NCBI GenBank assembly: GCA_902791625.1
Contig: CADAWN010000001.1
Location: forward strand, 35,333 to 99,332
Source: an uncultured Erysipelotrichaceae bacterium
GTDB lineage: Bacteria > Bacillota_I > Bacilli_A > RF39 > UBA660
Direction of reading: 5' to 3'
DNA: 64,000 nt
In this document: piece after piece, positions 36,353 to 63,342 of the stretch
How the letters are laid out: every line of letters begins with the position of its first letter
Numbering within the stretch: the stretch's first letter is position 1
Translations under genes and position numbers: made by a program
The notes under the pieces: model-generated
Databases searched by the model: none
What the model saw: the letters and a program-made list of their open reading frames with translations, nothing else
Told to the model about the DNA's origin: nothing

Positions 36353-36389
36353 ATTAACAGTGCGACAGAACATAGGCGGCAAAAAGAAA

Positions 36390-36411
36390 AGAGGGAATAT
36401 TCCCTCTTTTT
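36390..36411. terminator. Bidirectional hairpin terminator
   Basis: AGAGGGAATATTCCCTCT is flanked by A- and T-runs and abuts the stop of 36410..36649. Confidence 0.65.
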
Positions 36412-36649
36412 AATCTTCAAAAGGTTCTTGTTTATGGATAAAGAAATAATCTATTTTATCCCAGTCAATGTCATAACCTCTCTCATCTTTTTCAGGCTTT
36501 TCTCTGTTAAGGCGTTCTGCCTCAGCTTTTGCAATCTCGTCATCATAAGAGGCATAATAGGAGAGAAAAGTATCACAACTTGATTCATATTCTGTTCCTT
36601 TGTTGTAGTAAACAGGTTCCTTTGTTTTGTAGCACATTGCGTTAATCAT
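36410..36649 (-). CDS. Hypothetical early protein (79 aa)
   Basis: Track ORF with an RBS. Its own promoter reads TTGACAAACTTAAAAAAATATGTTATTAT on the minus strand near 36700. Confidence 0.65.
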   Translation of the reverse strand: MINAMCYKTKEPVYYNKGTEYESSCDTFLSYYASYDDEIAKAEAERLNREKPEKDERGYDIDWDKIDYFFIHKQEPFED

Positions 36650-36941
36650 AGTAACAACTCCTTTTATTTTTTTAAGGTTTTTCGTTTTCCTTGATTATAT
36701 AATAACATATTTTTTTAAGTTTGTCAAGTAGTTTTTAAAAATTTTTTTGTAAATAATTTATAAATAAGTTTTTATTTTTAACTAAATCAAAAGTAGAGTT
36801 ATTAAGAGATTATTAACATTGCGATACATTACGTTGTGCCGCACAGCATAAAAATATTGAATAGTATATTAATAATACGATAGAGTTAAATATAGATTAA
36901 TTATTAATAATGCGATAGTTAGAAAAAGAAAAAGGTTGACA

Positions 36942-37367
36942 TTAATCAACCTTTTCATTTAATTCAATAAAATCAATTATTTCATCATCTGTTATTATTT
37001 CGGTATCACGATTATCAAAAGTAAGTTGATACTTTTTACCTTTTTCGATGTTAATATTTTTCATTCTCCACATATTACCATCTTCTGTTATAAAAGTGTT
37101 TTCATTTACTGCGGTTGCGGTCATTTGATAATAAAACGTTTGTTCTGTTGAATAATCACTTGAACTTGAACTGCTTTCCTCTTTTGTTGATGATGTTATA
37201 CCATATATCATTACTATTATAACAATAATAATTCCATAGATTATATTTATTAAACAGATAATTGCCGCATAAGTTGGCATAGTTTCCTTATGAGCATTTT
37301 TAAAATAGCATAACGTATTGACAATAGTAAGAATAATGAGAATAACTAACATAATCTCGATTACCAT
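36942..37367 (-). CDS. Small membrane protein (141 aa, two N-terminal TM helices, Ser-rich linker)
   Basis: Track ORF with AAGGAG upstream. Its own promoter is near 37420, and the GGTTGAC..TCAACC terminator overlaps the stop. Confidence 0.65.
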   Translation of the reverse strand: MVIEIMLVILIILTIVNTLCYFKNAHKETMPTYAAIICLINIIYGIIIVIIVMIYGITSSTKEESSSSSSDYSTEQTFYYQMTATAVNENTFITEDGNMWRMKNINIEKGKKYQLTFDNRDTEIITDDEIIDFIELNEKVD

Positions 37368-37761
37368 AATTAAACATCTCCTTAAAGGTTTTAGGTTTGT
37401 CTTACTGTACTTATATAATACTATATTTTAGTAAATTTGTCAATGAATAATTTGTAAATACTTTATAAATATTTTATGAATAGAATATGAATATTGCGAT
37501 AGATTAAAATAAATCTAAAATATGAATAATTCGACAGTTTAAAAAAAATCTTAAAAATGGTTTTTGAATATTTTAATTCTTAAAAATATCCAACCCCTTA
37601 AAAGTTTATAACCCCTTAAAATAAATATGAATAAAGTTTGAATAATCCGACCCCTATTTTTTACCAAAAGAATAGAAATAAATTTGTGCAAATTGTTAAT
37701 TGACAGTACCCCTTTTTTATATTATAATATCAATAGAAAATAAAAAAGGAGTTGAGTAATT

Positions 37762-37932
37762 TTGAAAAAGACAAGTGTAACAGAACGCCGTTTTAAATGT
37801 CCTACTTGTAATTTTATTATGACTGCATACAAAAAATCAAGTCGCAGAACATCAAAAGGGCATTTAAAAAATATGTGGTGTCCAATTTGCAAAGAGGAAC
37901 ACAATTTTATTCAGTTGTCAAAGTATGAATAG
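37762..37932 (+). CDS. Zinc-ribbon protein (56 aa) that ends in TAG
   Basis: The promoter is TTGACA-17-TATAAT at about 37701-37730. The start is TTG after AAAGGAG. The protein reads KCPTC..CPIC. The TAG stop is followed by an AGAGGAAC..GTTCCCCTCT terminator. It is below the 60-aa threshold of the ORF track. Confidence 0.5.
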   Translation: MKKTSVTERRFKCPTCNFIMTAYKKSSRRTSKGHLKNMWCPICKEEHNFIQLSKYE

Positions 37933-38047
37933 AGAGGAACACTCGTTCCCCTCTATTTTATTAACTTAATATGAACATTGCGATAGAATTGAATATGAAT
38001 AAAATATTAACAATGCGATATATCAAAAGAAAAAGAAAAGAGAGTTT

Positions 38048-38272
38048 TTAACTCTCTTTTACAGTTACAATAAATGGAATTTTTCCATTCTCTCTCAAAA
38101 GCTTTTTTGCTCTTTTGATAACAGGATATGCGTGCTTTCCGTGAGTCTGTTCATATCTGCGTGACATATACCATTCAGCCATTTCAAAAGCGGCTTCTTT
38201 GTTGGTGTATGTTCTCTCAGCGACAACATCAGTAAAATTCTCGTACATAATAACAACATAATTCTTATTCAT
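38048..38272 (-). CDS. Hypothetical early protein (74 aa)
   Basis: Track ORF trimmed to the ATG (MNKNYVV..) after GAAAGGTAG. Confidence 0.6.
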   Translation of the reverse strand: MNKNYVVIMYENFTDVVAERTYTNKEAAFEMAEWYMSRRYEQTHGKHAYPVIKRAKKLLRENGKIPFIVTVKES

Positions 38273-38571
38273 AGTAAACACTACCTTTCTGGTTTATTGG
38301 GTTTTCCTTCCCTTATCTTGATTATAGTATAACATATCTTAATCAATTTGTCAATGAATATTTTATAAACTATTTGTGAACTTTTTATGAACAAAAGTAT
38401 GAATGATATGTGAACGTTGCGCCGCACACCAAATGTTACAAGAATATTAACATTGCGATAGTTACGATATTTCTTTTGATTAAAAGTTTTAATTTATTTA
38501 TAAAATATTTTCTTGACAAAATAGGATTTATGTGTTATACTATATATAGAATAATAAAGGAGGTTGTTATT

Positions 38572-38766
38572 ATGACTTTGAATGAAAAGGAAAATTTATT
38601 TTGGGATTGCACACATTACGGGAAAATTATTTTTGTAAATGATTATGATTTTAAAGCAGAAGGGATTTATGTTTCGACGTACTGTATCGAATACGAAGGC
38701 AAAAGACATTTTTTTATCAAAGCAAATGGCGCAGTTGTTCATTATGAAGAGGTTAAAGAGGATTAA
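38572..38766 (+). CDS. Hypothetical early protein (64 aa)
   Basis: ATG follows AAAGGAGGT. The upstream part of the track ORF covers the promoter (TTGACAAAATAGGATTTATGTGTTATACT). Confidence 0.65.
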   Translation: MTLNEKENLFWDCTHYGKIIFVNDYDFKAEGIYVSTYCIEYEGKRHFFIKANGAVVHYEEVKED

Positions 38767-38893
38767 ATCCTCTTTAATTTTTTATGAATATTGCGATAGT
38801 TTTCTACTAAAATTTGCAGTGCGGCACAAGGTAATTTATTGTAAAACTATTAACATTGCGATAGAACAAAAGCGAAAAAAATAAAGGTTGAAA

Positions 38894-39124
38894 TTAATCA
38901 ACCTTTATATTAAACTTATAAAAAGTATTTGAAATAGCGTCAATAATTCTTGCCATTTCAGACTTTGAAACTCTCTCGGAAATTTCAGTTAAACCGCCAT
39001 TCTCGTTAAAAATCTTGCAAAGTCTAACACCGCCATAAGCGTAGTTAAGTACAAACTGATTTGTGTTGAATTGTCTGTTGAGATTTTCAAGTTTCTTATC
39101 AAGTATTGTTTTTGTGATTGTCAT
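38894..39124 (-). CDS. Hypothetical early protein (76 aa)
   Basis: Track ORF with GGAGGT upstream. The hairpin terminator overlaps the stop. Confidence 0.65.
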   Translation of the reverse strand: MTITKTILDKKLENLNRQFNTNQFVLNYAYGGVRLCKIFNENGGLTEISERVSKSEMARIIDAISNTFYKFNIKVD

Positions 39125-39404
39125 AATAACGACCTCCTAAATTGTTTTATTGTTGTTCTTTACTGTACTTATAATATAACACATTTTCGCCAATTTGTCA
39201 ATGAATATTTTGTATTTATTTTGTAAATAAAATATGAATGACTATTAAAAAATTATGAACGTTGCGCCGCACAACAAATGTTACAAGATTGTTAATAATG
39301 CGATAGATATAGATGTATTCTTGTTCATAAAATATTTACAAAAAATCTATTGACAAAATACTATATATATGTTATACTGTATATAGTAAAAGGAGGTTGA
39401 TACT

Positions 39405-39590
39405 ATGACAACGAAAACACTTGCAAAAATGATAATAAATTCATTTACTGAAACAGACAAAGAAAAACTCAATCGTCAAATTAAATACCTTCAGACTTGT
39501 TATTTTCATAGCAATAACGTTAATCTTCAGGATGATATACAACAAACAATTTATTTTTTAATGGATAAAGTTGAAAAAATAAAAGGGTAG
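39405..39590 (+). CDS. Hypothetical early protein (61 aa) that ends in TAG
   Basis: Track ORF with AAAGGAGGT upstream. The TAG stop lies inside the terminator stem AAAGGGTAgaaaTACCCTTT. Confidence 0.65.
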   Translation: MTTKTLAKMIINSFTETDKEKLNRQIKYLQTCYFHSNNVNLQDDIQQTIYFLMDKVEKIKG

Positions 39591-39786
39591 AAATACCCTT
39601 TTTATTTATTAATTTTCTTTAAAAATGCGACTGCGGCAAAACGTAATTTATTACAAGAATATTAACAATGCGATAGTATAATAGTTTTCACATTTTAAAG
39701 CATTAAAACTTTTTGTAATTAAATTGTAATCTTTTGTAATCAAAATGTAATTGACTTTTACTCTATTTTATGTTATATTATATATA

Positions 39787-40051
39787 GGGATAAGGAAGGG
39801 AGAACAAATACTGGATGCACCCTTCCTGAGTAATGCCTACGAAGTTACTACTAACAAAGGCAAGGGGAAGTAGCGCAGTTACCATTTCTGCGATAGTGAA
39901 TTTGGGGCTTACAACCAACTGTAACGAAGGCGGTTATTCGGCAAGTGAGTAGTGTACATATCTCACAAACCGCAAAAGATATATACCTATCGGGTCAAGT
40001 CTATGGACTTGACAGGAACCTACCCGCAAAAACGGTAGGTATATTTCTTTT
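39787..40051 (+). ncRNA. Candidate structured ncRNA (~265 nt), class unknown
   Basis: The promoter is TTGACT (39751) -17- TATATT. No ORF or RBS follows. Several strong helices are visible (GGAAGGG/CCCTTCC, GTCAAGTC-tatg-GACTTGAC, GCGGTT../AACCGC). The unit ends in the terminator CCTACCCGcaaaaaCGGTAGGTATATTTCTTTTT. Confidence 0.55.
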
Positions 40052-40291
40052 TAAATTGATTAAAATTTTTAATTATTACTAAGTTATGAACAATGCGATA
40101 GTTACAAGTATAAATAAACTATTAACAATGCGACCGCACTATCGTATTCTTAACATAGTCTTAATAATTGCGCAATCGCAACGTTCATATTCTATTCACA
40201 AATCAATTCACAGAAATTTAATTTTTCAACTCTTGATTTTTAATATTTATTGTGGTATAATAATATTAGAAATTTAAAAGGAGGTCATAAT

Positions 40292-40600
40292 ATGACAAAA
40301 AATAACAATCTTAATTCTAAATACTGTGAGCCAATACTGCACCTTGCTAACTTGTGTTCTGCCGAGGGTATTCCTTTTGTTGTACGTCCAGCGTTTGAGG
40401 GGCTACAGCTTGTATGTCCGAGCTTAGAGAAATGGGAGTTTGATGTTATCTGCCATAGAGGTAGCTATGGACACGAGCAGGGGCTACTTGAAATTATGGG
40501 AGCTATTTGCAATGCTTGTGATGATGATGTAGAGGGCTACTTAGAAGTTGAAGAGGTTTTCGAGAGAATTAAAAAGTATTATAAAAAAAGGAGCTTATGA
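40292..40600 (+). CDS. Hypothetical early protein (102 aa), Cys/His-rich
   Basis: ATG follows AAAGGAGGT. The upstream part of the track ORF covers promoter DNA. Confidence 0.65.
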   Translation: MTKNNNLNSKYCEPILHLANLCSAEGIPFVVRPAFEGLQLVCPSLEKWEFDVICHRGSYGHEQGLLEIMGAICNACDDDVEGYLEVEEVFERIKKYYKKRSL

Positions 40601-40788
40601 TAATATAAAGGACTACTCAACTGTTGAGGAAATTTTTGAAGATATTAGAAAATGTTATAAAAAGGGAGAATAATCTCCCTTTTTCTTTTTTTAATAAAAT
40701 ATGAACAATGCGATAGACAAATTAGTTAAAATTTTTAATTAAATAAATAAAGAAAAAGGTTGATATTAATATCAACCTTTTAGTTTTC

Positions 40789-40992
40789 TTATTCTCTAAA
40801 GTCATCATAAATTTCAATTTCAATATCTGGCTTTATTCCCTCTGTGGAAGCAATTGCACCGATATAAATAACAAATTGATTCCATTCACATTCTTTTGAT
40901 AATTTTTCAAAATAAGCAAATACCTCATCAGGTACATTTACCATTTTACAAAAATCATCATCACTTGTTTTTATAAGTCTACCAATTTTCAT
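40789..40992 (-). CDS. Hypothetical early protein (67 aa)
   Basis: Track ORF with GGAGGT upstream. It has its own promoter (TTGACTTTTAGTTGGGAAAGTGTTATTAT on the minus strand). Confidence 0.65.
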   Translation of the reverse strand: MKIGRLIKTSDDDFCKMVNVPDEVFAYFEKLSKECEWNQFVIYIGAIASTEGIKPDIEIEIYDDFRE

Positions 40993-41223
40993 TTCTTTAC
41001 CTCCTAAAGTTAATCTTACTGTTGTTTTTTACTGTAACTATATAATAACACTTTCCCAACTAAAAGTCAATTACTTTTTTATTACAAAAGGTTACAATTC
41101 GGTTACAATTAAATATTAATAAATAATGTATAGTGCGGCATACTATATTATGAAAATGTAAACAGTACGATAGAGGTTTTAGTTAAAAGTTTTAATTAAT
41201 TAAATAAAAGAAAAAGGTTGACA

Positions 41224-41448
41224 TTAGTCAACCTCAATCTCGTCTATAATGAATATATCATCTAAATACTCAAAATCATTTTCAGCAAAATCATGAAATG
41301 CCTCATTTTCTCTATTGGCATCAAAGCCACAATTCTTATCAATAAAATTCCTTGCGCCAATTATTGCCTCATACATAGTATTATAAAATTTGTGTATATG
41401 AGTTCTACCGCACCAAGAACCTTCAATAATAAGAGCATATTTTTTCAT
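41224..41448 (-). CDS. Hypothetical early protein (74 aa)
   Basis: Track ORF with an RBS. The GGTTGACATTAGTCAACC terminator overlaps the stop. Confidence 0.65.
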   Translation of the reverse strand: MKKYALIIEGSWCGRTHIHKFYNTMYEAIIGARNFIDKNCGFDANRENEAFHDFAENDFEYLDDIFIIDEIEVD

Positions 41449-41613
41449 AGTATCAAATCCTTCCTCGTTTTAAAGAGTTTCGTTCTCTTATCTTGATTAT
41501 ATTATACTATATCCCAATTAAAAAATCAATAGACAAAATACACAAAGTTTCTACTTAAAAATTAGTAAAAATTTATCTTGACAAATTGAGATAAATATGT
41601 TATATTATATATA

Positions 41614-41707
41614 AAGAAAGGCAAATACAAAGTCGACCGAGGGTGCAATAGTGCCATAGGTCAAAATCTAAAACCTTAAAAAGGCGGTTTTCTATAACCG
41701 CCTTTTA
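41614..41707 (+). ncRNA. Candidate small RNA (~95 nt)
   Basis: The promoter is TTGACA (41578) -17- TATATT. No ORF follows. The body contains GACC..GGTC helices and ends in AAAAGGCGGTTttctatAACCGCCTTTT. Confidence 0.5.
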
Positions 41708-41951
41708 ACTTTTTATGAATATTCCGACCCCTTTTAAAAATTAAATTTATGTTAAATATCCGACTGACTATCGTACTGTTCATAAAATATTCAACCCCTT
41801 TTACAGTCGCCTTGTTCATAATTCCGTAATAGTTAAAAATTTTAATTAAAATGAAAATTAAAAGAGGTGCAGACGCATCCACACCCCTTAAGCATAGTCC
41901 GCAGACGTTTGCCGTTTTATTCTGTATCTGTTACCTCACAAAGTTTAACCT

Positions 41952-42131
41952 TTATCTCATAATCAGATAAATAACTCCTATTGCAATAAGACCAATAATA
42001 AAAGTTATCCATATTGGTGAAAGTACCCATACCCACGACCATTTAATTACTCCGCAAAGTTTAAGTACAATAAAAACCAATGCCAATACACTTGGAAAAC
42101 TCATTCCACCACTTACATTCTTCTTTTCCAT
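41952..42131 (-). CDS. Small membrane protein (59 aa)
   Basis: ATG at 42129-42131 follows GAGAAAGG. The protein MEKKNVSGGMSFPSVLALVFIVLKLCGVIKWSWVWVLSPIWITFIIGLIAIGVIYLIMR has two TM helices. It is below the ORF-track threshold. Confidence 0.5.
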   Translation of the reverse strand: MEKKNVSGGMSFPSVLALVFIVLKLCGVIKWSWVWVLSPIWITFIIGLIAIGVIYLIMR

Positions 42132-42232
42132 AATATCAAAACCTTTCTCGTTTTAAAGAGTTTCCGTTCTCTTATCTTGATTATATTATATCATATAATC
42201 TTGTTTTTGTCAATCGTCAAATTATACAAATC

Positions 42233-42469
42233 TTATGCTTCTATTTCATGCCTTTCTGTCCATATTACCCCTTCAATTCCAAAACTTATACGACTATCAG
42301 AGTATGAATGTGCTAATTTTGCAAAATAATCACTGTAAAAACTTTCCTTTTCATATTGTTTCAAAAACTGTCTACAATAATTATATGCACAAAGTGGATG
42401 TGAAAAAATATGAATCTTAATCTTAGAAGTTGACAAATCAAAATAATGAACCAACCAAACAAATCTCAT
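42233..42469 (-). CDS. Hypothetical early protein (78 aa)
   Basis: Track ORF with AAAGGAGGT upstream. Confidence 0.65.
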   Translation of the reverse strand: MRFVWLVHYFDLSTSKIKIHIFSHPLCAYNYCRQFLKQYEKESFYSDYFAKLAHSYSDSRISFGIEGVIWTERHEIEA

Positions 42470-42644
42470 AATAATACCTCCTTTTCTTTTCTATAATTAT
42501 TATACCATAAAATTTTTTAAAAATCAATAGATAAAATGTTAAATGTTTGTGAATTTTGCGCCGCCCTTGTTAAGAAAATATAAACGTTACGATAGGTGAT
42601 TTGATTAAAAATTTTAATTAAATAGAAAAAGAAAAAGGTTGATT

Positions 42645-43016
42645 TTACTCAACCTTTAACATAGTCATACCCATATCAAGCATTTGCTGTACAGTAAGAT
42701 TTTCAATACACCATTTTACAGACTTTTCGCTTGCTTTATCTGTATCAACAGAAAAGTTTAAAGTTCTCTCTTTAATCGTGTATTTATTTTCGTATTGTGA
42801 TAAGTATTCGTCAAAACTATTATAATAGTCTTGTTTATATTGTTCAATTGTTTTGTCTACCATATCAGGTGTGACTACTTTTTCATAATATCCGTGTAAA
42901 TTAAGCGGTCTACCAAAATAATCGAAACTTTCATATTTTTCTTTACCGTTTTTCTTTTTAATTAGAGTAAAATCTCCTGACGAAACACATACTTCAACTC
43001 TTACATAATCTTTCAT
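42645..43016 (-). CDS. Hypothetical early protein (123 aa)
   Basis: Track ORF with GGAGGT upstream. The hairpin terminator overlaps the stop. Confidence 0.65.
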   Translation of the reverse strand: MKDYVRVEVCVSSGDFTLIKKKNGKEKYESFDYFGRPLNLHGYYEKVVTPDMVDKTIEQYKQDYYNSFDEYLSQYENKYTIKERTLNFSVDTDKASEKSVKWCIENLTVQQMLDMGMTMLKVE

Positions 43017-43348
43017 TTAGATTACCTCCTAAATTATTTTCTATATATAATATAACATATATTAAAGCAAAAGTCAATTACAGAGTGATTACAAATAGTT
43101 ACAAAGTGGTTACAGGTTATGTCCAAACTATGAACGTAGCGGCGGCACAAAATGTTTCTTAAATGTAAACGATACGATAGTCAATCGCAATGTTAATATT
43201 ATCTTAACAACTTAACTGCCGCCGTATTAACATAATCTTAATAATTAAAAAATAAAACAAATTCATAAAAACTTTAAAAAATAACTATTGACTTTTAATA
43301 AAATTTATGGTATACTAATTATAGAAAAGAATAAAGGAGGTCAAAATA

Positions 43349-43450
43349 ATGTTTGACAAAATAATGACAAAAATTGGTGGAATATTTGCAGGTCTTTTGG
43401 TAACAATAGGTTTGTATGCAGTTTGCGTACTCTTTGCACTAATGTTTTAA
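43349..43450 (+). CDS. Membrane micropeptide (33 aa), first gene of a 3-gene operon
   Basis: AAAGGAGGT lies 8 nt upstream of the ATG. The peptide is MFDKIMTKIGGIFAGLLVTIGLYAVCVLFALMF. The next gene's RBS follows immediately. Confidence 0.45.
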   Translation: MFDKIMTKIGGIFAGLLVTIGLYAVCVLFALMF

Positions 43451-43463
43451 AGGAGGTTTAAAA

Positions 43464-43670
43464 ATGAGTGAAATTTACGCAAAAACGGTTTATGTCGTAG
43501 TGCAGGATGAAAGAGCTATTCATGTTTTTTATGATTATGAAAAAGCAATAGATTACATTTTTATGATTTGTATGACCAATAAAGAAGAAATTTCAAGAAA
43601 TATTCGTGATTATAATCAACATAATTCAGATTATGGAATTTTTAAAGTTGAAAGAGCTTTTATAGATTAA
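43464..43670 (+). CDS. Hypothetical early protein (68 aa)
   Basis: Track ORF with AAGGAGGT upstream. Confidence 0.65.
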   Translation: MSEIYAKTVYVVVQDERAIHVFYDYEKAIDYIFMICMTNKEEISRNIRDYNQHNSDYGIFKVERAFID

Positions 43671-43682
43671 GGAGGTTTAAAA

Positions 43683-43898
43683 ATGATGTATACAACGGAA
43701 GAAGGAAAAAGATTTCAAGCGTATGACCTTTATGATTTTCATGAGTTGCTTTGTGAAAGCGATAATCTTACAGATTGTTACAATGCTGTTTTGCAGAGAT
43801 TTGAGGATACAGACGGCGAATGTGCTTGTGAAATAAGAGATATGGAAACTATTGGTAGTTTTTCTGTTACTATTGATGGTTGGAGTGATGAAGAGTAA
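43683..43898 (+). CDS. Hypothetical acidic early protein (71 aa)
   Basis: Track ORF with AAGGAGGT upstream. The terminator GAGTTGACaaaaGTCAACTC follows. Confidence 0.65.
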   Translation: MMYTTEEGKRFQAYDLYDFHELLCESDNLTDCYNAVLQRFEDTDGECACEIRDMETIGSFSVTIDGWSDEE

Positions 43899-44129
43899 GA
43901 GTTGACAAAAGTCAACTCTTTTCTTTTGTTTGTTTAATTAATTTTTTTAACTATTACGAAATTATGAATACCACGACACTATATAATATTAAGGAATTAT
44001 GTATCTTAATTAAAAATCAATATACAAAATAACCAAAAATCTACCTTAAAATTTGTCTAAAAATCTACTTGACAATTCCCCTTTTCTATGCTATACTATA
44101 TACAAGATAAGATTTAGGAGGTAGATTAA

Positions 44130-44360
44130 ATGAAATCTGATAAATTTTTTGAAAATCTTAATTATGTTGTGCTTATGGGTTTAATAATCGCACAATGTAT
44201 AATTGGTAAATGGTATTTAATAGGTCAAGGAATTTACTTGATTTGCAATACAATTTCAGTTACAAGAGATTTTGTACTGAAAAGACCAAAAGCAGATAAA
44301 ATAAAAGATTTGTCTTGTACTGCAATAACAATAGGTTTGATATTGTTAGCAATAAGGTAG
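44130..44360 (+). CDS. Small membrane protein (76 aa) that ends in TAG
   Basis: Track ORF with TAGGAGGT upstream. The TAG stop lies inside the terminator stem AATAAGGTAgaaatTACCTTATT. Confidence 0.65.
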   Translation: MKSDKFFENLNYVVLMGLIIAQCIIGKWYLIGQGIYLICNTISVTRDFVLKRPKADKIKDLSCTAITIGLILLAIR

Positions 44361-44504
44361 AAATTACCTTATTGCTTTTTTGTTAATAATGCGATAGAAT
44401 GCCCGCTAAAATATTACAAAACTATGAATAATGCGATAGAGATTTAGTTAAAATTTTTAATTAAATAGAAAAAAGAAAAGGTTGACATTAGTCAACCATT
44501 TTCC

Positions 44505-44858
44505 TTATACCATAGTTAAATCAAAAGTCAACTGATTATCAGTTTCATATTTAACCTCAAATTCCGTAAAATGTCCGTCAGCATAAACAATTCTACTTGT
44601 ATATTCAAGAGGAAAAGTCAAACGCTTATCTATATAATCAATAAAATTGCTCATAACTTTTCTTTTAGCTTCCAAATACTCAGGTTCAATAAACTGGTCA
44701 AGTATTGATTTACCCCTGACGTATTTATCTTTCATATCCCAGAAAAAATACCTCCAACTATTAGAATCTGCAAAACCTCTTAATTCACCCCATTGTCTGT
44801 CATCATTACATTCTTCAACAAAATAATAGGCTAATTCATAACTGTTATTAAATCTCAT
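44505..44858 (-). CDS. Hypothetical early protein (117 aa)
   Basis: Track ORF trimmed to the ATG (MRFNNSYEL..) after AAAGGTGG. Confidence 0.6.
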   Translation of the reverse strand: MRFNNSYELAYYFVEECNDDRQWGELRGFADSNSWRYFFWDMKDKYVRGKSILDQFIEPEYLEAKRKVMSNFIDYIDKRLTFPLEYTSRIVYADGHFTEFEVKYETDNQLTFDLTMV

Positions 44859-45052
44859 AAATAATACCACCTTTTAAAGTTTCGTTGTTGTTCTTTACTA
44901 TATATAATATAACATATTTCAAGCAGTTTGTCAATGAATATTTTGTAAACAATAGGTAAACAATTTATTAACGTTGCGCCGCCCTTCATTATGAACAGAT
45001 TATGAACATCACGACGGAGCGCGGCACAGAAAAAGAGGAACAAATGTTCCTC

Positions 45053-45340
45053 TTAATCTTCCTCTTCAACTATTTCGTTAATCTGCAAAATATCTCCCCA
45101 CTCGTCATTTACTTTGCACTTACAATAAAGTATAGCACAAAACTGCCAAAAATCCAATTCGCAAGAGTTTTCGTTAATTTCAATAAATTTACCATTAACC
45201 TCTGCCGTTATTTCTTCTCCTTCAAAACAACCAATACAAAAATCAAAAACTGCCTGACGTGCAAATTTTTCAAACTCTATTGTTTTGGTATCTTCAAAGA
45301 ATTTAATTTCATTTGTTGTCATATTAGTTGCAAATAACAT
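45053..45340 (-). CDS. Hypothetical acidic early protein (95 aa)
   Basis: Track ORF with AAAGGAGGT upstream. It is the second gene of a 2-gene operon. Confidence 0.65.
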   Translation of the reverse strand: MLFATNMTTNEIKFFEDTKTIEFEKFARQAVFDFCIGCFEGEEITAEVNGKFIEINENSCELDFWQFCAILYCKCKVNDEWGDILQINEIVEEED

Positions 45341-45354
45341 TTATAAAACCTCCT

Positions 45355-45537
45355 TTATTCAAAAACATCAATTTCTCTTATTGCATAAAAATCATCAACA
45401 GCACCATAATCTTCTATTTGCTTTTCAACAGAATCTTTGTCATATTCTGTCATTGATGCAATATCTTCTATCGCCCTTGATTTTTTAAGATAAGCATAAT
45501 CTATAATGCCGTTTATTTCTACTGCATATACTGTCAT
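45355..45537 (-). CDS. Hypothetical early protein (60 aa)
   Basis: Track ORF. The promoter TTGACATTTAATAATTTTTATGGTATAAT lies on the minus strand near 45560-45600. Confidence 0.6.
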   Translation of the reverse strand: MTVYAVEINGIIDYAYLKKSRAIEDIASMTEYDKDSVEKQIEDYGAVDDFYAIREIDVFE

Positions 45538-46098
45538 TTTAAATTCAACTCCTTTTCTTTTACTATAATCATTATACCATAAAAATTATTAAATGTCAAT
45601 AGAAATAAAATTAAACTTTTATTAATTAGTTAAAAGATTTAATTATTACAGAATTATGAACACTGCGATAGTACTACATTATGAACATACTATAAATATT
45701 ACGACCGCACTGCCGCACTGTTAATATCTTCTTAACAAACTCAACTGCCGCACCGTTCACAATTTCGCAATAATTAAAAATTCTAACCAATTAACAAAAA
45801 CTTAATAAAAAAAATTTTCAAAACCTATTGACAAACAACTTGAAATATGCTATACTATATATAGTGAAAGAGAGAAAAACAAAAAACTCTCAAAAGTAAC
45901 TTGACTTTCCCCAATAGTCAAAACGCACAAAAGTAAACAATAAAGTTTGTGCAAAATGCCAGTTGACTTTCCTTGAAAAGTATGCTATAATGTATACAGA
46001 ACAAAGGAAAGAGAGGCAAAGAAAATCCCAAAATCATACGTCCCCAATAACAAATCAATGTCAGCCGATAGACGTTAAAACGGAGAAAGAGGTAAATT

Positions 46099-46449
46099 AT
46101 GACACAGAGAGATTTTTACAACGCAATCGCTAACAACACAGAGCTTGCACCTGAGCTTACAGATTTTGCAAAGGAAGCTATCAAGGCACTCAACAAGAAG
46201 AATGAGGCACGCAATAGCAAGGCAAACGCAAAGAAGGCAGAGGTCAATGCACCTATTATTGCCGCTATCCGTGAGGTACTTGCAGACGGCAAGCCGCATT
46301 TTGCAGGTGATGTTGCCACAGCAGTAGAGCAGTCACTCCCAAAGGTTGCCGCACTTGTTAAGACTATGGCAGATGTAGCCGTATCAAAGGCAAAGCCGGA
46401 GGGCGCAAAGGCAAAGAAAACTGTTTACACTCTTGTTGTTGAGCAGTAG
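46099..46449 (+). CDS. Small Lys/Ala-rich protein with a winged-helix-like C-terminus, paralog 1 of 4; ends in TAG
   Basis: Track ORF MTQRDFYNAIANN... The leader contains GGAGAAAGAGG. Tandem promoters lie at about 45826 and 45962. GC content is higher and the codons look optimised (AAG/GCA-rich). Confidence 0.7.
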   Translation: MTQRDFYNAIANNTELAPELTDFAKEAIKALNKKNEARNSKANAKKAEVNAPIIAAIREVLADGKPHFAGDVATAVEQSLPKVAALVKTMADVAVSKAKPEGAKAKKTVYTLVVEQ

Positions 46450-46777
46450 TCAATAAATGGAAACGGTGAACAAAAGTTCGCCGTTTCTTTTTTTCTAATT
46501 AGTTAAAAATTTTAACTATTACGAAATTATGAACATTGCGATAGTTCTATTTATAACAAAAGTATGAACAATACGATAGGTTAATGTCGTATTATTAACA
46601 TAATCTTAACATTTTGTACTGCCGCACTGTTCATATTTTCGCAACATTTTAGCACTTTAAACTACTAAAGTGTTCGTAACCACTTTGTAACCTTTTGTAA
46701 TAATTCTGTAATTGACTTTTATAGTTATATGTTGTATAATACGTATAGAAACTTAAAGAAAGACAGGTGTTCAAAAA

Positions 46778-47440
46778 TTGAATAAGCGTTTGTATATTGT
46801 ACTTGACACGGAAACTACAAACAACATGGATTTTCCTTTTGTTTATGATTTAGGTTTTTCCGTTGTTGACAAAACAGGCAAGGTATATTACAAAAGGTCA
46901 TTTGTAATTTATGATATTTATGTGCTTTGCAAAGACTTAATGAGAACAGCGTACTATGCAAATAAACTCCCACAATATGAAATTGACTTGAAATCTAAAA
47001 AGCGTGAACTTGTTAGATTTTCCACGGCAAGAAAAATTATACTCCAAACAATGAAAAAGTATAATATATATGCAATTATGGCACACAATATGCGTTTTGA
47101 CCTTAATGCACTTAATACCACTTTAAGATATATAACAACATCACAACAGAGGTATTTTTTCCCACAAGGCACAAGACTTTGGTGCACTTTGGCAATGTCA
47201 AGGTCAATTTTCAAAAACAAACCTACATACAAGAGGTATTGTGAAGAAAACGGATACTTGACAAGAAACAAGCAAATAAAACTCACAGCGGAAATTATTT
47301 ACAGGTTTATTACTGGAAATAATGACTTTGTTGAAAATCACACGGGACTTGAAGATGTAATGATAGAAAAGGAAATTTTTTCCTACTTGAAAAGACAGCA
47401 TAAAAAAATGCAGTTGACTTACTGGAAAGAAACGGCATAA
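46778..47440 (+). CDS. DEDDh (DnaQ-like) 3'-5' exonuclease, copy 1
   Basis: The track ORF contains the motifs VLDTETTN, AHNMRFDLNALN and HTGLEDVMIEKEIF (H-x4-D). Confidence 0.75.
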   Translation: MNKRLYIVLDTETTNNMDFPFVYDLGFSVVDKTGKVYYKRSFVIYDIYVLCKDLMRTAYYANKLPQYEIDLKSKKRELVRFSTARKIILQTMKKYNIYAIMAHNMRFDLNALNTTLRYITTSQQRYFFPQGTRLWCTLAMSRSIFKNKPTYKRYCEENGYLTRNKQIKLTAEIIYRFITGNNDFVENHTGLEDVMIEKEIFSYLKRQHKKMQLTYWKETA

Positions 47441-47599
47441 GCCGTTTTTTTCTACCCCTATTTAGTTAAAAGATTTAACCTTTGCCGCAAGTCGCAACGT
47501 TCACAATTTATTCACACTATCGCATTATACATACCCCGTTAATAATTAAAAAATAAAACTAATTCACAAAAACTTAATAAAAAAATTTTCAAAAACCTA

Positions 47600-47628
47600 T
47601 TGACAAATAAATATATATGTACTATAAT
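47600..47628 (+). promoter_or_regulatory. Consensus early promoter, given as an example of the family
   Basis: TTGACA, a 17-nt spacer, TATAAT, then TATATACAGAAAAG. The same layout sits in front of nearly every gene between 36 and 61 kb. Confidence 0.7.
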
Positions 47629-47660
47629 ATATACAGAAAAGAAAAAAGGAGGTTGTCAAT

Positions 47661-48113
47661 ATGGCAATAGAAAAAACAATTAACTTTGATTTAGATGGGA
47701 CTTTAGCAGACCTTTACGGCGTGGAAAATTGGCTTGCATATTTGCAGGCAGGTGATAGTACACCTTATGAAACAGCAAAGCCCCTTGTAAAGATGCAGGT
47801 GCTTGCAAGAATGTTGAATAACAAAAAAAGACAGGGTTTTACAATAAATGTTATATCATGGCTTGCTAAAAATTCAAACCCTGAATATGATGAAAAGGTA
47901 AAAAATGCTAAATTAAATTGGCTGAAAAAACATCTCAAAAGCGTTGAATTTGATAATATATTTATTGTAGAATATGGTACTCCCAAGCAAAATTTGGCAA
48001 AAGGTTTTTTATTCGATGACGAGGTAAATAATAGAATAAACTGGAAGGGTATTGCTTTTGATGTGAATAATATAATAAATGATTTAAAGACATTAACTAA
48101 TTACACCTCCTAA
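47661..48113 (+). CDS. HAD-superfamily phosphatase (5'-nucleotidase-like)
   Basis: The track ORF has N-terminal FDLDGTLAD (the DxDxT motif I) and a late FDDE. Confidence 0.65.
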   Translation: MAIEKTINFDLDGTLADLYGVENWLAYLQAGDSTPYETAKPLVKMQVLARMLNNKKRQGFTINVISWLAKNSNPEYDEKVKNAKLNWLKKHLKSVEFDNIFIVEYGTPKQNLAKGFLFDDEVNNRINWKGIAFDVNNIINDLKTLTNYTS

Positions 48114-48343
48114 ATTATGGAAATGGCGAACAAGTGTTCGTCATTTCTATTTTGTTATTTAGTTAAAAATTTTAACTGCGGCACAGGGTATCGCAATGTT
48201 CACATTTCCGTAACATTTTAACGCTTTAAAGTATTAAAGTAAAACTGTAACTACTTTGTAACTATTCGTAACTAAATTGTAATTGACAAATCAAAAGATA
48301 TATGCTATAATGTATACAGAAAAGAAAAAAGGAGGTTGCTAAT

Positions 48344-48715
48344 ATGGCAAAGTCAGTAAAAACAATGAAAACTGAAAAGAAAAATGAGTACATTGAAAAA
48401 ATTACCAAATTCCTTCTTGAAAATGAGGAGGACGTGGTAAGAACTGGAAGCGGTGAACTTGCTTTTCCTATTGTCCTTGAAAATGGAGATGAATGCTTTA
48501 TTACTCTCAAAGTATCAATACCCACAGGGACAAGAGATGGTGAAGATTATAACGGTTATGCAGTAGCAAACAGTTATAAAATTGACTGCGAAAAATCCGC
48601 AGTAAAAGCGGAAAATGCAAGGAAAGCAAAAGAAAAGAAAATTGCCGCAGACAAAAAACGCCGTGAAAACTCCGCAAAAATTAAAGCGGAGAGAGAAAAG
48701 AGAAAAGAGGGATAA
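48344..48715 (+). CDS. Hypothetical protein with a basic KKIAADKKRRE tail (paralogous to 59353..59772)
   Basis: Track ORF with AAAGGAGGT upstream. It shares its C-terminal motif and overall layout with the minus-strand genes at 59.0-59.8 kb. Confidence 0.65.
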   Translation: MAKSVKTMKTEKKNEYIEKITKFLLENEEDVVRTGSGELAFPIVLENGDECFITLKVSIPTGTRDGEDYNGYAVANSYKIDCEKSAVKAENARKAKEKKIAADKKRRENSAKIKAEREKRKEG

Positions 48716-48880
48716 CCTCTTTTCTTTTTATTTAATTAGTTAAAAATTTTAACTATTGCCGCAAGTCGTATTGTTAATAGTTTCTTAACATTTTTGTACT
48801 GCCGCACTGTTCATACTTTGGTAATAATTAAATCTTTTAATCAATTCACAAAAAGTTAATAAAAAAATTTTCAAAACCTA

Positions 48881-48909
48881 TTGACAAATCGGAAAATCTA
48901 TGTTATACT
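48881..48909 (+). promoter_or_regulatory. Consensus early promoter for paralog 2
   Basis: TTGACA, a 17-nt spacer, then TATACT with a TG extension. Confidence 0.65.
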
Positions 48910-48990
48910 ATATACAGAGTTAAGGGAAAAGCCCTTAAACAATAAAGTAAAGAGAGCCGAACTCAATAAAACGGAGAAAGTAGGTAAATT

Positions 48991-49332
48991 ATGACACAGA
49001 GAGATTTTTACAATGCAATCGTTAAGGCAGATGTAGCACAGGAGTTGAAGGACTATGCAAGCGCACAGGTTCAGGCACTTAACAACAAGAACTCCGCAAG
49101 AAATGTCAAGGCAAGGGCAAAAAAGGCAGATGAAAACAAACCCCTTGTAGCACAGATTAAGACAATCCTTGCAGACGGTCAGGCACATACTTGCTCTGAA
49201 ATTTCCGCAAGCACTGGCGCAAATATTCCTAAGGTATCCTCCCTTATAACCACATATTTCAAGGATACTGTTATAAGAGAAACTGTTAAGGTAGACAAGA
49301 AGAGGGCAGTTGCATATCGCCTTGCACAGTAG
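48991..49332 (+). CDS. Small winged-helix-like protein, paralog 2 of 4; ends in TAG-TAA
   Basis: Track ORF MTQRDFYNAIVKAD... Its leader AGAGAGCCGAACTCAATAAAACGGAGAAAG is conserved. Confidence 0.7.
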   Translation: MTQRDFYNAIVKADVAQELKDYASAQVQALNNKNSARNVKARAKKADENKPLVAQIKTILADGQAHTCSEISASTGANIPKVSSLITTYFKDTVIRETVKVDKKRAVAYRLAQ

Positions 49333-49540
49333 TAAAAATTGGAAAACGGCAGAAATGCCGTTTTTCTTTTCACTTAATTAGTTAAAAATTTTAACTATTG
49401 CCGCGGGTCGTAATGTTCATAATTCCATAATATTTAAAATAAATAACAAATTCACAAAACTTTAATAAAATAACTATTGACTTTTAATATTTTTTATGTT
49501 ATACTGTATATAGAAAATAAAAAGAAAGGTGGTTGCTAAT

Positions 49541-49972
49541 ATGGCAAATATGTATTTTAATGATGATTTTGAGGTATGTTCAATAAGTAAAGACCCTGCG
49601 TATCTTTACATTGATGACGTAGACAAGTTCCTTTATGATTGCGGTGATGGTTACGTTTCTGATGGTGTAGATAAGTCAGGCGTTTATCTATGGAATAACT
49701 ACTATTGTGTATGGGATTTAGCCGACCCTGAAATTGATAAGAAAATTAGAGCATTAGTTGAGGAGATTAACACTCTCCGTCAAGAAAAATCACACCAGGA
49801 TAATAATAAAGTTACTGGGTGGAATATTTCAGTTACTCTTGACTCAGGTTTGTGTGTTAAAATCAATAATGAACCTATTTCAATGGATAAAGTCCCTGAG
49901 ATAATAAATACTCTTCTTAAACCATACTTTTTCGGTAAGAGAATTATAGAATTTGAGATAGTTGCGGAGTAA
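49541..49972 (+). CDS. Hypothetical early protein (143 aa)
   Basis: Track ORF trimmed to the ATG after AAAGGTGGT. Confidence 0.65.
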   Translation: MANMYFNDDFEVCSISKDPAYLYIDDVDKFLYDCGDGYVSDGVDKSGVYLWNNYYCVWDLADPEIDKKIRALVEEINTLRQEKSHQDNNKVTGWNISVTLDSGLCVKINNEPISMDKVPEIINTLLKPYFFGKRIIEFEIVAE

Positions 49973-50158
49973 TCCGCAACTTTTTTATTTTAGAGTTAGT
50001 CATTCCTAACCGACCGTCGCATCATTCACACTTTCGTAACATTTTATAGCGGCGGCACAAAATAACCAAAAATTACTCCTAAACTTTGTGCATTTTGCCA
50101 ATAGACAACCTCTTTAATCTATGCTATAATAAAAATAGAAATTAAGGAGGTTGAACCA

Positions 50159-50790
50159 ATGGCAAAAAAGAAATTCTATATGGTACTTGATACCGAAACG
50201 GCAAACGGACTTGATGACCCTCTTGTTTATGATATAGGTTTTGCAATCATAGACAAAAAAGGTCAAGTCTATCTTGAAAAATCCTTTGTTATTTACGATA
50301 CTTTTGTTTTGATGAAGGACTTAATGCAGACGGCATATTATTCCGAAAAAATCCCACAGTATGAGGATGACTTAAAAAACGGTAAAAGAAAACTTGTTAC
50401 CCTTGCAACCGCACAATCAATAATTGCATATAACCTTAAAAAGTTTAATGTTAGTGCGGTAATTGCCCACAATATGAGATTTGACTATAACGCCCTTAAT
50501 ACAACCCTCCGTTATTTAACTAAATCTCAAAAGCGTTATTTTCTCCCCTATAATACTACAATTTGGTGCAGTCTTGCGATGGCACGAACAACAATAGGCA
50601 AACAAAAAACGTATCAACTTTGGTGTAAAGACTTACTGCCGAAATTCTCTACCGATATATAACAGATAATAACGATTTTATCGAAAGCCATACAGGACTG
50701 GAGGACGTTCTTATCGAAAAGGAAATTTTTGCACATTGTATTCGTCAACACAAGAAAATGCAACGCACATACTGGAAGGAAACGGCATAA
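50159..50790 (+). pseudogene. DEDDh exonuclease copy 2, disrupted by a frame-shifting internal deletion
   Basis: Residues 1-160 align with copy 1. After LWCK the frame breaks (stop at 50660-50662). The rest (RLTAEILYRYITDNNDFIESHTGLEDVLIEKEIF..WKETA) continues in another frame to TAA at 50788-50790. About 34 nt are missing relative to copy 1. Confidence 0.6.
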
Positions 50791-50975
50791 GCCGTTTTCT
50801 TTTTTATTTAATTAGTTAAATTTTTTAACTGCGGCACAAGGTGTCGCATTGTTCACAGTTCAGTAATAATTAAATCTTTTTACTAATTAACAAAAACTTT
50901 AAAAAATAACTGTTGACATTTAATAAAATCTATGCTATACTGTATATAGAAAATAAAAAGAAAGAAGGTTTTAAA

Positions 50976-51167
50976 ATGGCAACTTTTACAGTACGTTTTA
51001 TCCAGGAGTATACCTACGAGGTGGAGGCAAATGATGTTGATGAGGCAATAGATAACGCCGAGGAAGAGTTTAGTTTTGATATGTGTTCACCAATAGCCAA
51101 TACTACATGGGACGAAATGATAGTAGAAGATGAAGATGGAGAAGAAGTCGCACATGGATATATGTAA
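50976..51167 (+). CDS. Hypothetical acidic protein (63 aa)
   Basis: ATG follows AAGAAGGT. The upstream part of the track ORF is promoter DNA. Confidence 0.6.
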   Translation: MATFTVRFIQEYTYEVEANDVDEAIDNAEEEFSFDMCSPIANTTWDEMIVEDEDGEEVAHGYM

Positions 51168-51182
51168 AGGAGGTTAAAAATA

Positions 51183-51416
51183 ATGAATATTATTACTGCA
51201 CCAAGATACCAAGATTTTAGCGGACATATCCATAAAACAAAAGAGGATTGTGTAAATGCAGAAAAGAATTTTAAAGAAAATATTATTCAGACATTTAAAG
51301 AATTGGCAAAAGGTTGTAGAAATCAAAAAAATTGTAAAGATTGTCCTTTTCAACATGAAATTAAATGTTTTTTTGGTGAAACAACAGGTGAACTTCCAAT
51401 ACACTGGGATATTTAA
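51183..51416 (+). CDS. Cys-rich small protein (77 aa), paralog of 51810..52064
   Basis: Track ORF with AAAGGAGGT upstream. It shares the blocks PRYxDFxGxIxxTxxxCxNAExNF..FxELAKGC. Confidence 0.65.
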   Translation: MNIITAPRYQDFSGHIHKTKEDCVNAEKNFKENIIQTFKELAKGCRNQKNCKDCPFQHEIKCFFGETTGELPIHWDI

Positions 51417-51609
51417 GAAGGGGATACCCCTTCTTTTTTTTATTTTAATTAGTTAAAAAATTTAACTGCGGCGCAAGGTGTCGCGGCATTCATATTCTCT
51501 TAATAATTAAAACAACTAACTAATTAATAAAAATTTAATTTTATTTCTATTGACTTTTAATAAAAACTATGTTATAATAAATATAGAAAATAAAGAGGAG
51601 GTAGTCCAA

Positions 51610-51804
51610 ATGCTAACTATTAGAGATTTAATCTGTCAAGGTGCCGACCTTGATATGCCAATCTGTGTATTGGCACGAACTCATGATGAAAAAGGTAACT
51701 GCACAGGCGTATACTATTCTTATGCTGAAATACCATCGGACAATTTCACAATTGTAGATGGTATACTCACTATAATGACAGATGTTAATGATGTAGGAGG
51801 TTAA
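51610..51804 (+). CDS. Hypothetical protein (64 aa)
   Basis: ATG follows GAGGAGGT. The upstream part of the track ORF is promoter DNA. Confidence 0.6.
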   Translation: MLTIRDLICQGADLDMPICVLARTHDEKGNCTGVYYSYAEIPSDNFTIVDGILTIMTDVNDVGG

Positions 51805-51809
51805 AAACA

Positions 51810-52064
51810 ATGAGAGTAATCAATGAACCAAGATACGAAGATTTTAAAGGAAAAATCTACAGGACACAAAAAGAGTGTATAAACGCAGAAAACAACTTTG
51901 TAGAAGATGTTTTCCAGTTGTTTGAAGAATTGGCAAAAGGTTGCGGAAAATATGGAGCCGAGTGCAATGGTTGTCCCTTTTATGATAATAACTTAGATTA
52001 TTGTTCTATTCAAGCAACAACAGGCGATGCACCAGCAAATTGGATATTTAAAGAAGGGGAATAA
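51810..52064 (+). CDS. Cys-rich small protein (84 aa), paralog of 51183..51416
   Basis: Track ORF with GGAGGT upstream. Confidence 0.65.
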   Translation: MRVINEPRYEDFKGKIYRTQKECINAENNFVEDVFQLFEELAKGCGKYGAECNGCPFYDNNLDYCSIQATTGDAPANWIFKEGE

Positions 52065-52276
52065 TCCCCTTTTTTATTTATTTAATTAGTTAAAAATTTT
52101 AACTTTCTTGCTCTGTCGCAACGTTCACAAATCCTTAACATATTACAAAACTATGAACATAGCGTCCGTCCATTTGGTTAAAACATTTAACTAATTAACA
52201 AATCCTTAACATCTCCCATGATCGAACATACGTTCGCCTCCACCATTGCATAATCTATCTATCCCCCTTCCATAAT

Positions 52277-63173: not shown

Positions 63174-63200
63174 TCTATTACTTCCTTTACTTTTATTCAA

Positions 63201-63274
63201 CACCCTTAGAAGGACTCGAACCTTCACTCTTGACATTCGTAGTGTCCTGACTTCTCCAGTTAGTCGATAAGGGT
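63201..63274 (-). tRNA. tRNA-Arg (anticodon ACG)
   Basis: The minus strand reads ACCCTTA-TC-GACT-AACTGGAGA-AGTC-A-GGACA-CTACGAA-TGTCA-AGAGT-GAAGG-TTCGAGT-CCTTC-TAAGGGT-G. It has a perfect 7-bp acceptor stem, a 4-bp D stem, a 5-bp T stem with a TTCGAGT loop and a 7-nt anticodon loop whose centre is ACG. There is one G-A mismatch at the top of the anticodon stem, and no CCA is encoded. Confidence 0.75.
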
Positions 63275-63342
63275 ATATTTGCTCGTCTTTCCGAGCCGTC
63301 AACAGTTTTACAAGACTGAAACTACTGTCGCAGTCAATGCTG

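Follow-up and report, generated by a model that had tools for sequence, protein, structure and literature searches.

A candidate structured RNA gene in an optional early-region cassette of a TAG-recoded phage

An ORF-free transcription unit and its predicted fold

The DNA analysed here, called the window throughout, is a 64-kb stretch of contig CADAWN010000001.1 (64,000 nucleotides, nt) that appears to belong to a phage reading TAG as a sense codon. Its early region is a stereotyped series of very small genes separated by repeat-rich spacers, and every gene has a sigma-70 promoter close to consensus and ends in a hairpin terminator; a motif scan returned 33 promoter-like sites against 18.7 expected, and eight terminator-like sites against 0.8 expected. 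One unit of this region, at 39751-40052 on the + strand, runs from promoter to terminator with no conserved open reading frame (ORF), and is predicted to yield a non-coding RNA (ncRNA) of ∼267 nt (39786-40052, +), taking the start as 7 nt past the −10 element and the end as lying in the U-tract. The coordinates of the features listed for the unit were confirmed in the sequence.

The unit opens with a sigma-70-type promoter, TTGACT (39751-39756) and TATATT (39774-39779) separated by a 17-nt spacer, with 10 of 12 matches in the motif scan. The original prediction, made from the DNA letters and a list of ORFs, had described a consensus promoter of this form; it is present, with the addition that TG at 39771-39772 makes it an extended −10 promoter (TG-n-TATATT). 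By its −10 block, ATGTTATAYTRTATAT, the promoter belongs to an early-promoter family (D13) that has five copies at 37-42 kb, and it is kept across all homologues in our alignment. Abutting the −35 element are four TGTAAT repeats spaced by 11, 10 and 11 nt (39714-39751, +, read from the sequence). The same TGTAAY array is found before the promoters of two ORF-bearing sister cassettes, in loci L143 and L137, and before promoters in locus L001. The array, whose repeats are in helical phase, could be an UP-like element or a set of regulator sites; its recurrence points to a promoter subclass of its own, marked by an UP-like element or by sites for an activator.

At the other end, folding places an intrinsic terminator at 40018-40052 (+), ACCTACCCG-CAAAAA-CGGTAGGT followed by ATATTTCTTTTT. 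Its stem pairs ACCTACC(CG) at 40018-26 with (CG)GGTAGGT at 40033-40, the local hairpin has an energy of −9.6 kcal/mol and is followed by TATATTTCTTTTT, and the T-tract occupies 40044-52; the one change seen in it among homologues, C to U, retains a G:U pair. The canonical terminator claimed earlier is therefore real in the sense of a hairpin with a U-tract, though the automatic terminator scan did not list it, because of the 9-nt loop (or a bulged stem). The RNA had also been described as more GC-rich than its surroundings, and the GC fraction is indeed 0.44 at 39800-39999 versus 0.21-0.31 in the flanks. GC-rich islands in AT-rich DNA are typical of structural RNA genes. Fold stability exceeds that of shuffled sequence on both strands (z = −3.1 on the + strand and −3.9 on the − strand), so the strand call rests on the orientation of promoter and terminator.

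Homologues were sought in ENA and Logan assemblies, where protein searches with the two flanking small proteins led to ∼30 related early-region loci; one of these loci, L004, is a copy of the same stretch (window 30292-50600). The RNA was found by nhmmer in nine contigs (the window, L136, L140, L141, L159, L160, L162, L163 and L165), which hold six distinct sequences that are 94-99% identical. The helices described below are all given on the + strand. The 5′ hairpin P1, GGAAGGG/CCCTTCC with a 19-nt loop (39794-39800/39820-39826), is invariant in all six sequences and covers a purine run resembling a Shine-Dalgarno (SD) sequence, which forms one P1 strand, and the region of an ATG. P2 (39848-39873) is CTACT/AGTAG in the window and CCATT/AATGG in the other five sequences, a difference made of two compensatory pairs (U:A to C:G and C:G to U:A). 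P3 (39930-35/39968-73) also shows two compensatory pairs, U:A to C:G and G:C to A:U, such that GCGGUU/AACCGC is exchanged for GCGGUC/GACCGC and GCAGUC/GACUGC. Inside P3, across a 9-nt internal loop, lies P3a (GTGAG/CTCAC, 39945-49/39962-66), which closes a 12-nt apical loop and contains one G:C to G:U change and one terminal A.C. P4, GTCAAGTC-TATG-GACTTGAC (39994-40013), has three compensatory pairs, and in L141 its stem is entirely different in sequence (GTTACCC-TTTG-GGCGTAAC) and still forms a hairpin.

The 3′ domain can also form a long stem, ATATACCTATCG/CGGTAGGTATAT (39981-92/40033-44; 12 bp, invariant), as an alternative to the local terminator hairpin, and its energy is −31.1 kcal/mol with the long stem versus −25.3 kcal/mol with the local hairpin enforced. 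The long-stem form branches P4 and leaves ACAGGAACCTACCCGCAAAAA unpaired; the invariant unpaired strand of the 3′ domain, ∼21 nt long, is ACAGGAACCUACCCGCAAAAA. In the 5′ domain several long-range pairings compete (GUAAUGCCU/GGGGCUUAC, UGCCU/AGGCA, GUUAC/GUAAC and UUACA/UGUAA); they are mutually exclusive and none is variable. A further hairpin, CGCAG/CTGCG at 39874-39891, is probably not real, being broken in L136 and L141. The helices named in the original prediction (P1, P3 with P3a, and the 3′ hairpins) are all found in the sequence where it had placed them.

RNAalifold on four of the sequences predicted 71 pairs, seven of them with compensatory double changes. For a statistical test of covariation we used a conservative core of six helices with 500 column shuffles, and as a control slid the 3′ partners by 1-3 columns. 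In the core 97.4% of cells are paired, versus 31-48% with slid partners, and both-sided changes occur in seven pairs (in P2, P3 and P4), versus 0-2 in the slid controls; none of the 500 shuffles attained the observed compensatory-pair count or covariation score. The six sequences vary in 54 columns, 22 of which are inside the 76 paired columns. Fourteen of these 22 make up the seven compensatory pairs, three give G:U, two are terminal A.C, and the rest belong to the re-registered L141 hairpin. Covariation at homologous loci had been proposed as a check, and it returns compensatory changes in three helices; selection for pairing in P2, P3 and P4 is thus strongly supported by the sequence comparison.

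The claim that the unit has no ribosome-binding site and no ORF stands in its second half: no ORF is conserved, but an SD-like stretch, AAGGAAGGGAG, does lie 12 nt upstream of the ATG at 39815. The ORF that starts there has 4, 17, 27 or 43 codons in four homologues, and the first four homologues differ from one another by indels of +2, +1 and −1 nt. Within the one 20-codon stretch in which the frames coincide (judged by eye in the alignment), four of five changes are first-position replacements, two of which are one partner in an RNA compensatory pair; the P4 replacement in L141 alters five of seven residues in the longest stop-free frame, with the hairpin kept. A search with this frame against 1.84 billion representative proteins returned large repeat proteins only and no credible relative; the best match is ∼30% identical to an adhesin repeat, with an E-value of 2e-20 summed over 11 copies, each of which is insignificant. 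The resemblance traces to a chance peptide, SGQVYGLDRNLPAK (39987-40028, in a frame within 39900-40079), that is similar to TGQ(V/L)YALDKNLDKK, a repeat present at least 11 times in an adhesin-like protein of 2783 amino acids (aa). Since the indels break every frame and protein relatives are lacking, we judge the unit to be non-coding. On these grounds, all of them drawn from sequence, it is highly probable that 39786-40052 is a functional structured ncRNA gene.

Relatives, the optional slot and known RNA families

The cassette carrying the RNA (∼39641-40069) is an insertion when aligned with contigs in which the flanking genes are adjacent, and the alignment with one of these, L147, puts its left boundary at ∼39641. 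The flanks are direct repeats of ∼32 nt that end in AACAATGCGATAG. The left repeat, AATTTATTACAAGAATATTAACAATGCGATAG (39645-39676, +), ends in the early-region motif AAYANTGCGAYAG and matches the right repeat, TAATTATTACTAAGTTATGAACAATGCGATAG (40070-40101, +), at 24 of 32 positions; contigs with an empty slot hold a single copy. The slot is empty in L147, L148, L161, L164, L167 and L168, and the deletion junction of L161 fuses two AACAATGCGA motifs. Elsewhere it holds other cargo: a small ORF behind the same promoter module in L143 (54 aa) and L137 (56 aa), and a small RNA (sRNA) of ∼100 nt in L139, L142 and L001. The L137 cargo (L137:1008-1190) is a markedly GC-rich ORF of ∼56 aa (MCEVERIGYDTYYLVSVEEH...) behind an AT-rich promoter module, which indicates that the slot accepts cargo of foreign composition. 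The sequences directly support that the cassette is gained and lost when repeated intergenic motifs with AACAATGCGAYAG at their end recombine. When every window ORF at 33-52 kb was scored as present or absent in 13 loci, no gene tracked the RNA.

In the window the motif AAYANTGCGAYAG has 33 copies, versus 0.8 expected; all of them but one lie at 36-52 kb. The copies span 36356-52125 (for example 39664-39676, 40089-40101 and 40124-40136), and 23 of the 33 are on the + strand whatever the orientation of the genes. They are often paired, 35 nt apart, in intergenic spacers, and the cassette junctions fall there; the motifs may be recombination hot spots, binding sites of a regulator, or both.

This arrangement is reminiscent of the PeSL units of T4-type phages, small accessory early genes framed by a conserved early promoter and a stem-loop terminator, which are exchanged, inserted and deleted among close relatives by recombination at repeated regulatory motifs (PMC2839356, PMC4122927). 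Here too close relatives carry, lack or exchange a framed unit at one site, and its junctions fall at repeated motifs. The host clade is different, however, the motifs (AAYANTGCGAYAG and the TGTAAY arrays) are unrelated, and the cargo is a structured RNA rather than a small ORF, so that we read the resemblance as an analogy of architecture and not as homology.

Further searches added no copies. Over 325 kb of related loci, a covariance model of the 5′ domain turned up nothing beyond the nine near-identical copies, blastn gave no real match to GenBank phages or PLSDB plasmids, and one 21-base pattern met no similar sequence in GTDB genomes. Exact-pattern scans of IMG/VR and the JGI metagenomes gave no relevant match, where some of the IMG/VR patterns were segments later found to be variable (returning nothing or chance 17-mers) and others were invariant blocks. 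A scan of IMG/VR for two copies of AACAATGCGA was unspecific, with at least 120 chance loci. The element is almost unchanged in samples from several studies, and as far as these tools reach its distribution appears narrow: one clade of uncultured phages, recurring in independent samples.

The RNA has no counterpart among known families. Rfam 15 (4227 covariance models) at gathering thresholds returned only a tRNA (63201-63274) in the whole window and no match in ten related loci (103 kb), and at E ≤ 10 there was no plausible match over the RNA body. The only sub-threshold overlaps, with STnc300 (21 bits versus 80) and AbsR25 (15 versus 47), are minus-strand matches that owe their scores to the terminator. 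Neither a tRNA nor a transfer-messenger RNA (tmRNA) came out of ARAGORN, including with introns allowed, at default settings and at -ps80, and at -ps70 it gave only junk models. The empty Rfam/Infernal scan, which had been put forward as a check, and the ARAGORN result agree with the failure of the original prediction to match tRNA, tmRNA, 6S, signal recognition particle (SRP), RNase P or hammerhead signatures by eye. The RNA does share its size range and multi-helix fold with the large SRP RNA of Firmicutes, 6S RNA, tmRNA, RNase P RNA and T-box leaders, but it matches none of them in Rfam at E ≤ 10 and is not a tmRNA by ARAGORN. Four resemblances noted by eye were dropped as too weak or contradicted by the Rfam results: strings like RNase P conserved regions (GGCUUAC, ACAGGAAC), the count of CsrA-type GGA motifs, a 6S-like bubble in the 3′ domain, and a CUACGAA heptamer common to the phage tRNA-Arg anticodon loop.

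The pRNA of the phi29 family (RF00044) is likewise phage-encoded, stand-alone and highly structured, with a strong early promoter, no ORF and conserved loops, and a 6-nt loop-loop complementarity (UGGAUG with CAUCCA) is possible in five of the six variants of our RNA, the window copy being mismatched. We rejected a phi29-type pRNA nonetheless. There is no RF00044 match (E ≤ 10), and the cassette is absent in close relatives, whereas pRNA is an essential part of the motor. The virion protein is akin to those of large siphophages, and the phage itself is a siphophage of ∼84 kb as opposed to a phi29-like podophage of ∼20 kb. A literature search found no description of the RNA. By every test available it would be a new RNA family within a known category, that of stand-alone phage ncRNA genes and mobile early-gene cassettes.

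Possible roles of the RNA

We tentatively favour a stand-alone early gene whose structured RNA acts in trans on a host factor, a full statement that we would put somewhat short of even. The RNA would be made at a high level by the host RNA polymerase right after infection, and the 5′ hairpin and the 3′ terminator stem would stabilise it. As no phage gene co-occurs with it, it would act in trans without a dedicated phage partner. It would most likely bind and titrate a host protein or complex, in takeover of the cell or as a counter-defence decoy, because the RNA alternates with small orphan early proteins; phage early regions abound in tiny orphan genes, the chief source of functions in host takeover and anti-defence. 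The contact surface would be the nearly invariant single-stranded segments, namely the P1 loop, GAGUAAUGCCUACGA and the unpaired 3′ strand. The original prediction had suggested a role in translation or against host defence; as close relatives can dispense with the RNA, a core part in recoded translation is disfavoured, and an accessory role in host interaction fits better.

Several observations weigh against this reading. The case for a decoy mechanism is one of context: the unit would be expressed early, it is accessory, it alternates with small orphan proteins, and no phage partner co-occurs with it. Most of the fold is unproven, since just six close sequences underlie the covariation and P1, the core of P3a and the terminator do not vary among them, nor do the long 3′ stem or any of the long-range pairings. 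Read on the other strand, both terminal A.C mismatches would become G:U; covariation leaves the strand undecided. As the promoter DNA beside it is conserved to the same degree as the RNA, conservation by itself is uninformative. Also to be set on this side is the lack of an extended antisense target in the 64-kb window for the two conserved loops.

The more specific proposal of a counter-defence decoy or sponge, made in bulk early to occupy an immune or RNA-surveillance protein, or serving as an aptamer for an immune signalling nucleotide, from a cassette traded interchangeably with small anti-host proteins, has in our estimation a rather small chance of being right. Known phage RNA decoys (RNA anti-CRISPRs or solitary repeat units, and pseudo-ToxI) are small, have their own promoters, occupy a host defence protein and are patchily distributed. 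The present RNA resembles them as a small phage-borne RNA gene with its own promoter that is accessory and patchy; it differs in that they copy a host RNA (a CRISPR repeat or ToxI repeats), whereas here there is no host template, repeat unit or tandem array. No sequence similar to the RNA was found in GenBank phages, PLSDB, the JGI metagenomes or GTDB (searched with one 21-base pattern).

Of the other explanations, base pairing deserves the most weight, although we still consider it unlikely. A trans-acting regulatory sRNA would then use one of its conserved single-stranded segments to bind an mRNA of the host, or one that the phage encodes outside the window, and so change its translation or stability early in infection. 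Phage and prophage base-pairing sRNAs are well known, and the stand-alone architecture, the Rho-independent terminator with its U-tail and the ∼20 nt that are invariant and unpaired in the 3′ domain would all suit such a molecule; with 267 nt and at least five helices, on the other hand, it goes far beyond the usual seed-type sRNA in size and structure. The 64-kb window contains no sequence complementary to the P1 loop or the 3′ loop when up to three mismatches are allowed, a negative result that weakly disfavours pairing with phage mRNA, and the best complementary stretches in L004 (window 30.3-50.6 kb) are 12 nt. It is improbable that the element is instead a cis-acting leader, akin to a riboswitch or attenuator, whose alternative 3′ folds set read-through into the gene at 40292-40597. 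The 3′ strand CGGTAGGTAT can pair with three CCTAY segments (39833-40, AUGCCUAC; 39981-92; 40018-26), and the 5′ end has an SD-like stretch and a mini-ORF. Yet both 3′ folds put a helix beside the U-tract, so neither is an anti-terminator, the length and sequence of the mini-ORF are not conserved, and Rfam gives no riboswitch or T-box match. Moreover, ∼240 nt, two repeat motifs and a separate promoter intervene before the downstream gene, which has its own promoter and ribosome-binding site and is found unchanged in relatives with an empty slot.

A part in TAG recoding or translation, such as modulating release factor 1 or the use of a suppressor tRNA, is suggested by the recoded late genes of the phage, and theta ribozymes next to suppressor tRNAs show that RNA elements can be tied to recoding in gut phages (PMC10879173). 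These minimal ribozymes, like those of hepatitis delta virus (HDV), are structured RNA elements enriched in stop-codon-recoded phages, and to that extent comparable, but they are small and abut tRNA genes (PMC10879173), while the present RNA has 267 nt, no tRNA inside or beside its unit, and no match to an HDV-like or other ribozyme. The RNA is also optional among near-identical relatives, and its promoter is of the early type whereas the recoded genes are late, which leaves this role very improbable. Slightly lower still we would rate the idea, already largely refuted, of a small protein gene that is cryptic or has decayed, in which case the unit would be a pseudogenised relative of the ORF cassettes and its structure incidental. 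The first ∼30 nt (ATAAGGAAGGGAG...ATG) are like the 5′ untranslated region (UTR) and start codon of the L143 and L137 cassettes, which use the same promoter module; the helices, however, are held by compensatory changes, the L141 hairpin is re-sequenced yet retained, the frames are broken differently in each variant with no protein homologue, and the element is nearly unchanged across the samples of several studies. Least probable of all is an element acting as DNA, such as an origin, packaging or recombination site whose hairpins would work at the DNA level. Both strands fold equally well, and the two mismatches noted above would be wobble pairs on the − strand, but three one-sided changes give G:U on the + strand, the element is exactly framed by a promoter and terminator of one orientation, and its dispensability in close relatives is incompatible with a core ori or pac site.

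Irrespective of its target, a large structured RNA with covariation support occupies a slot where it can be swapped with small proteins, in phages that rewrite the genetic code. To our knowledge, the cargo of phage early regions is almost all protein. If the RNA does act on a host factor, the accessory arsenal of phages would extend to sizeable folded RNAs; if it remains an orphan, it would still be a clean candidate for a new RNA family. It is compact and self-contained (promoter, 267 nt, terminator) and thus easy to synthesise and test, and it suggests that ORF-free gaps in the genomes of recoded phages should not be taken as annotation artefacts.

The phage and its other early-region genes

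The window has a GC content of 30%, and the long genes on its minus strand (1.4-35 kb) are open only if TAG is read as sense. With TAG as sense, the longest ORF has 2474 codons, and the stop-free ORFs of 100 codons or more together amount to about one window length, versus 54% of it under the standard code. The 18 predicted late genes (1.4-28 kb plus 29-33 kb) contain 0-71 in-frame TAG codons each, and most of the small genes at 35-50 kb contain none. Code use is thus divided within the genome, and the RNA unit lies in the early part that keeps to the standard code. A virion protein shares ∼35% identity with tail proteins from large siphophages of Bacillus and Lactococcus, and relatives of the gene downstream of the RNA are found in metagenome-assembled genomes of Lachnospiraceae, Clostridia and Eubacteriales. 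The sequence directly supports a TAG-recoded siphophage, and it is the virion-protein similarity and these metagenome-assembled genomes that point to a Firmicute as its host. The related contigs look, by their names, as if they come from rumen or gut assemblies. The 64-kb window encodes a single tRNA, tRNA-Arg(ACG) at 63200-63275, and a suppressor tRNA with a CUA anticodon was not found there; a suppressor tRNA may be encoded elsewhere in the ∼84-kb genome, or be supplied otherwise.

The downstream gene (40292-40673) belongs to a widespread family of small proteins with the motifs DVICHRGSYG, LLEIMG and VEGYLT and with no Pfam or PHROG match; PHROGs and Pfam gave no informative match for the neighbouring and sister-cassette proteins in general. 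Many of its homologues carry a C-terminal repeat of ∼25 aa that copies the preceding segment (DNA repeat 40521-87/40597-663). In the window copy this C-terminal extension is out of frame, and the ORF ends at the TAG at 40598.

A second ORF-free unit, at 41579-41720, consists of an early promoter, an RNA of ∼100 nt with no Rfam match and the terminator AAAAGGCGGTTTTCTATAACCGCCTTTT. Copies of this RNA lie at L139:5340-5470, L001:4140-4285 and 2540-2620, and L142:4790-4880. It contains a conserved hairpin of the pattern SCCGAG-[5-bp stem]-ARUA loop-...-RUAGGS, the stem of which covaries between phages (GGUGC/GUGCC, AACGC/GUGUU and GACGC/GCGUC). The ∼100-nt RNA is nearly universal in the relatives, in some of which it fills the slot of the 265-nt RNA, and it occurs once in a 5′ UTR.

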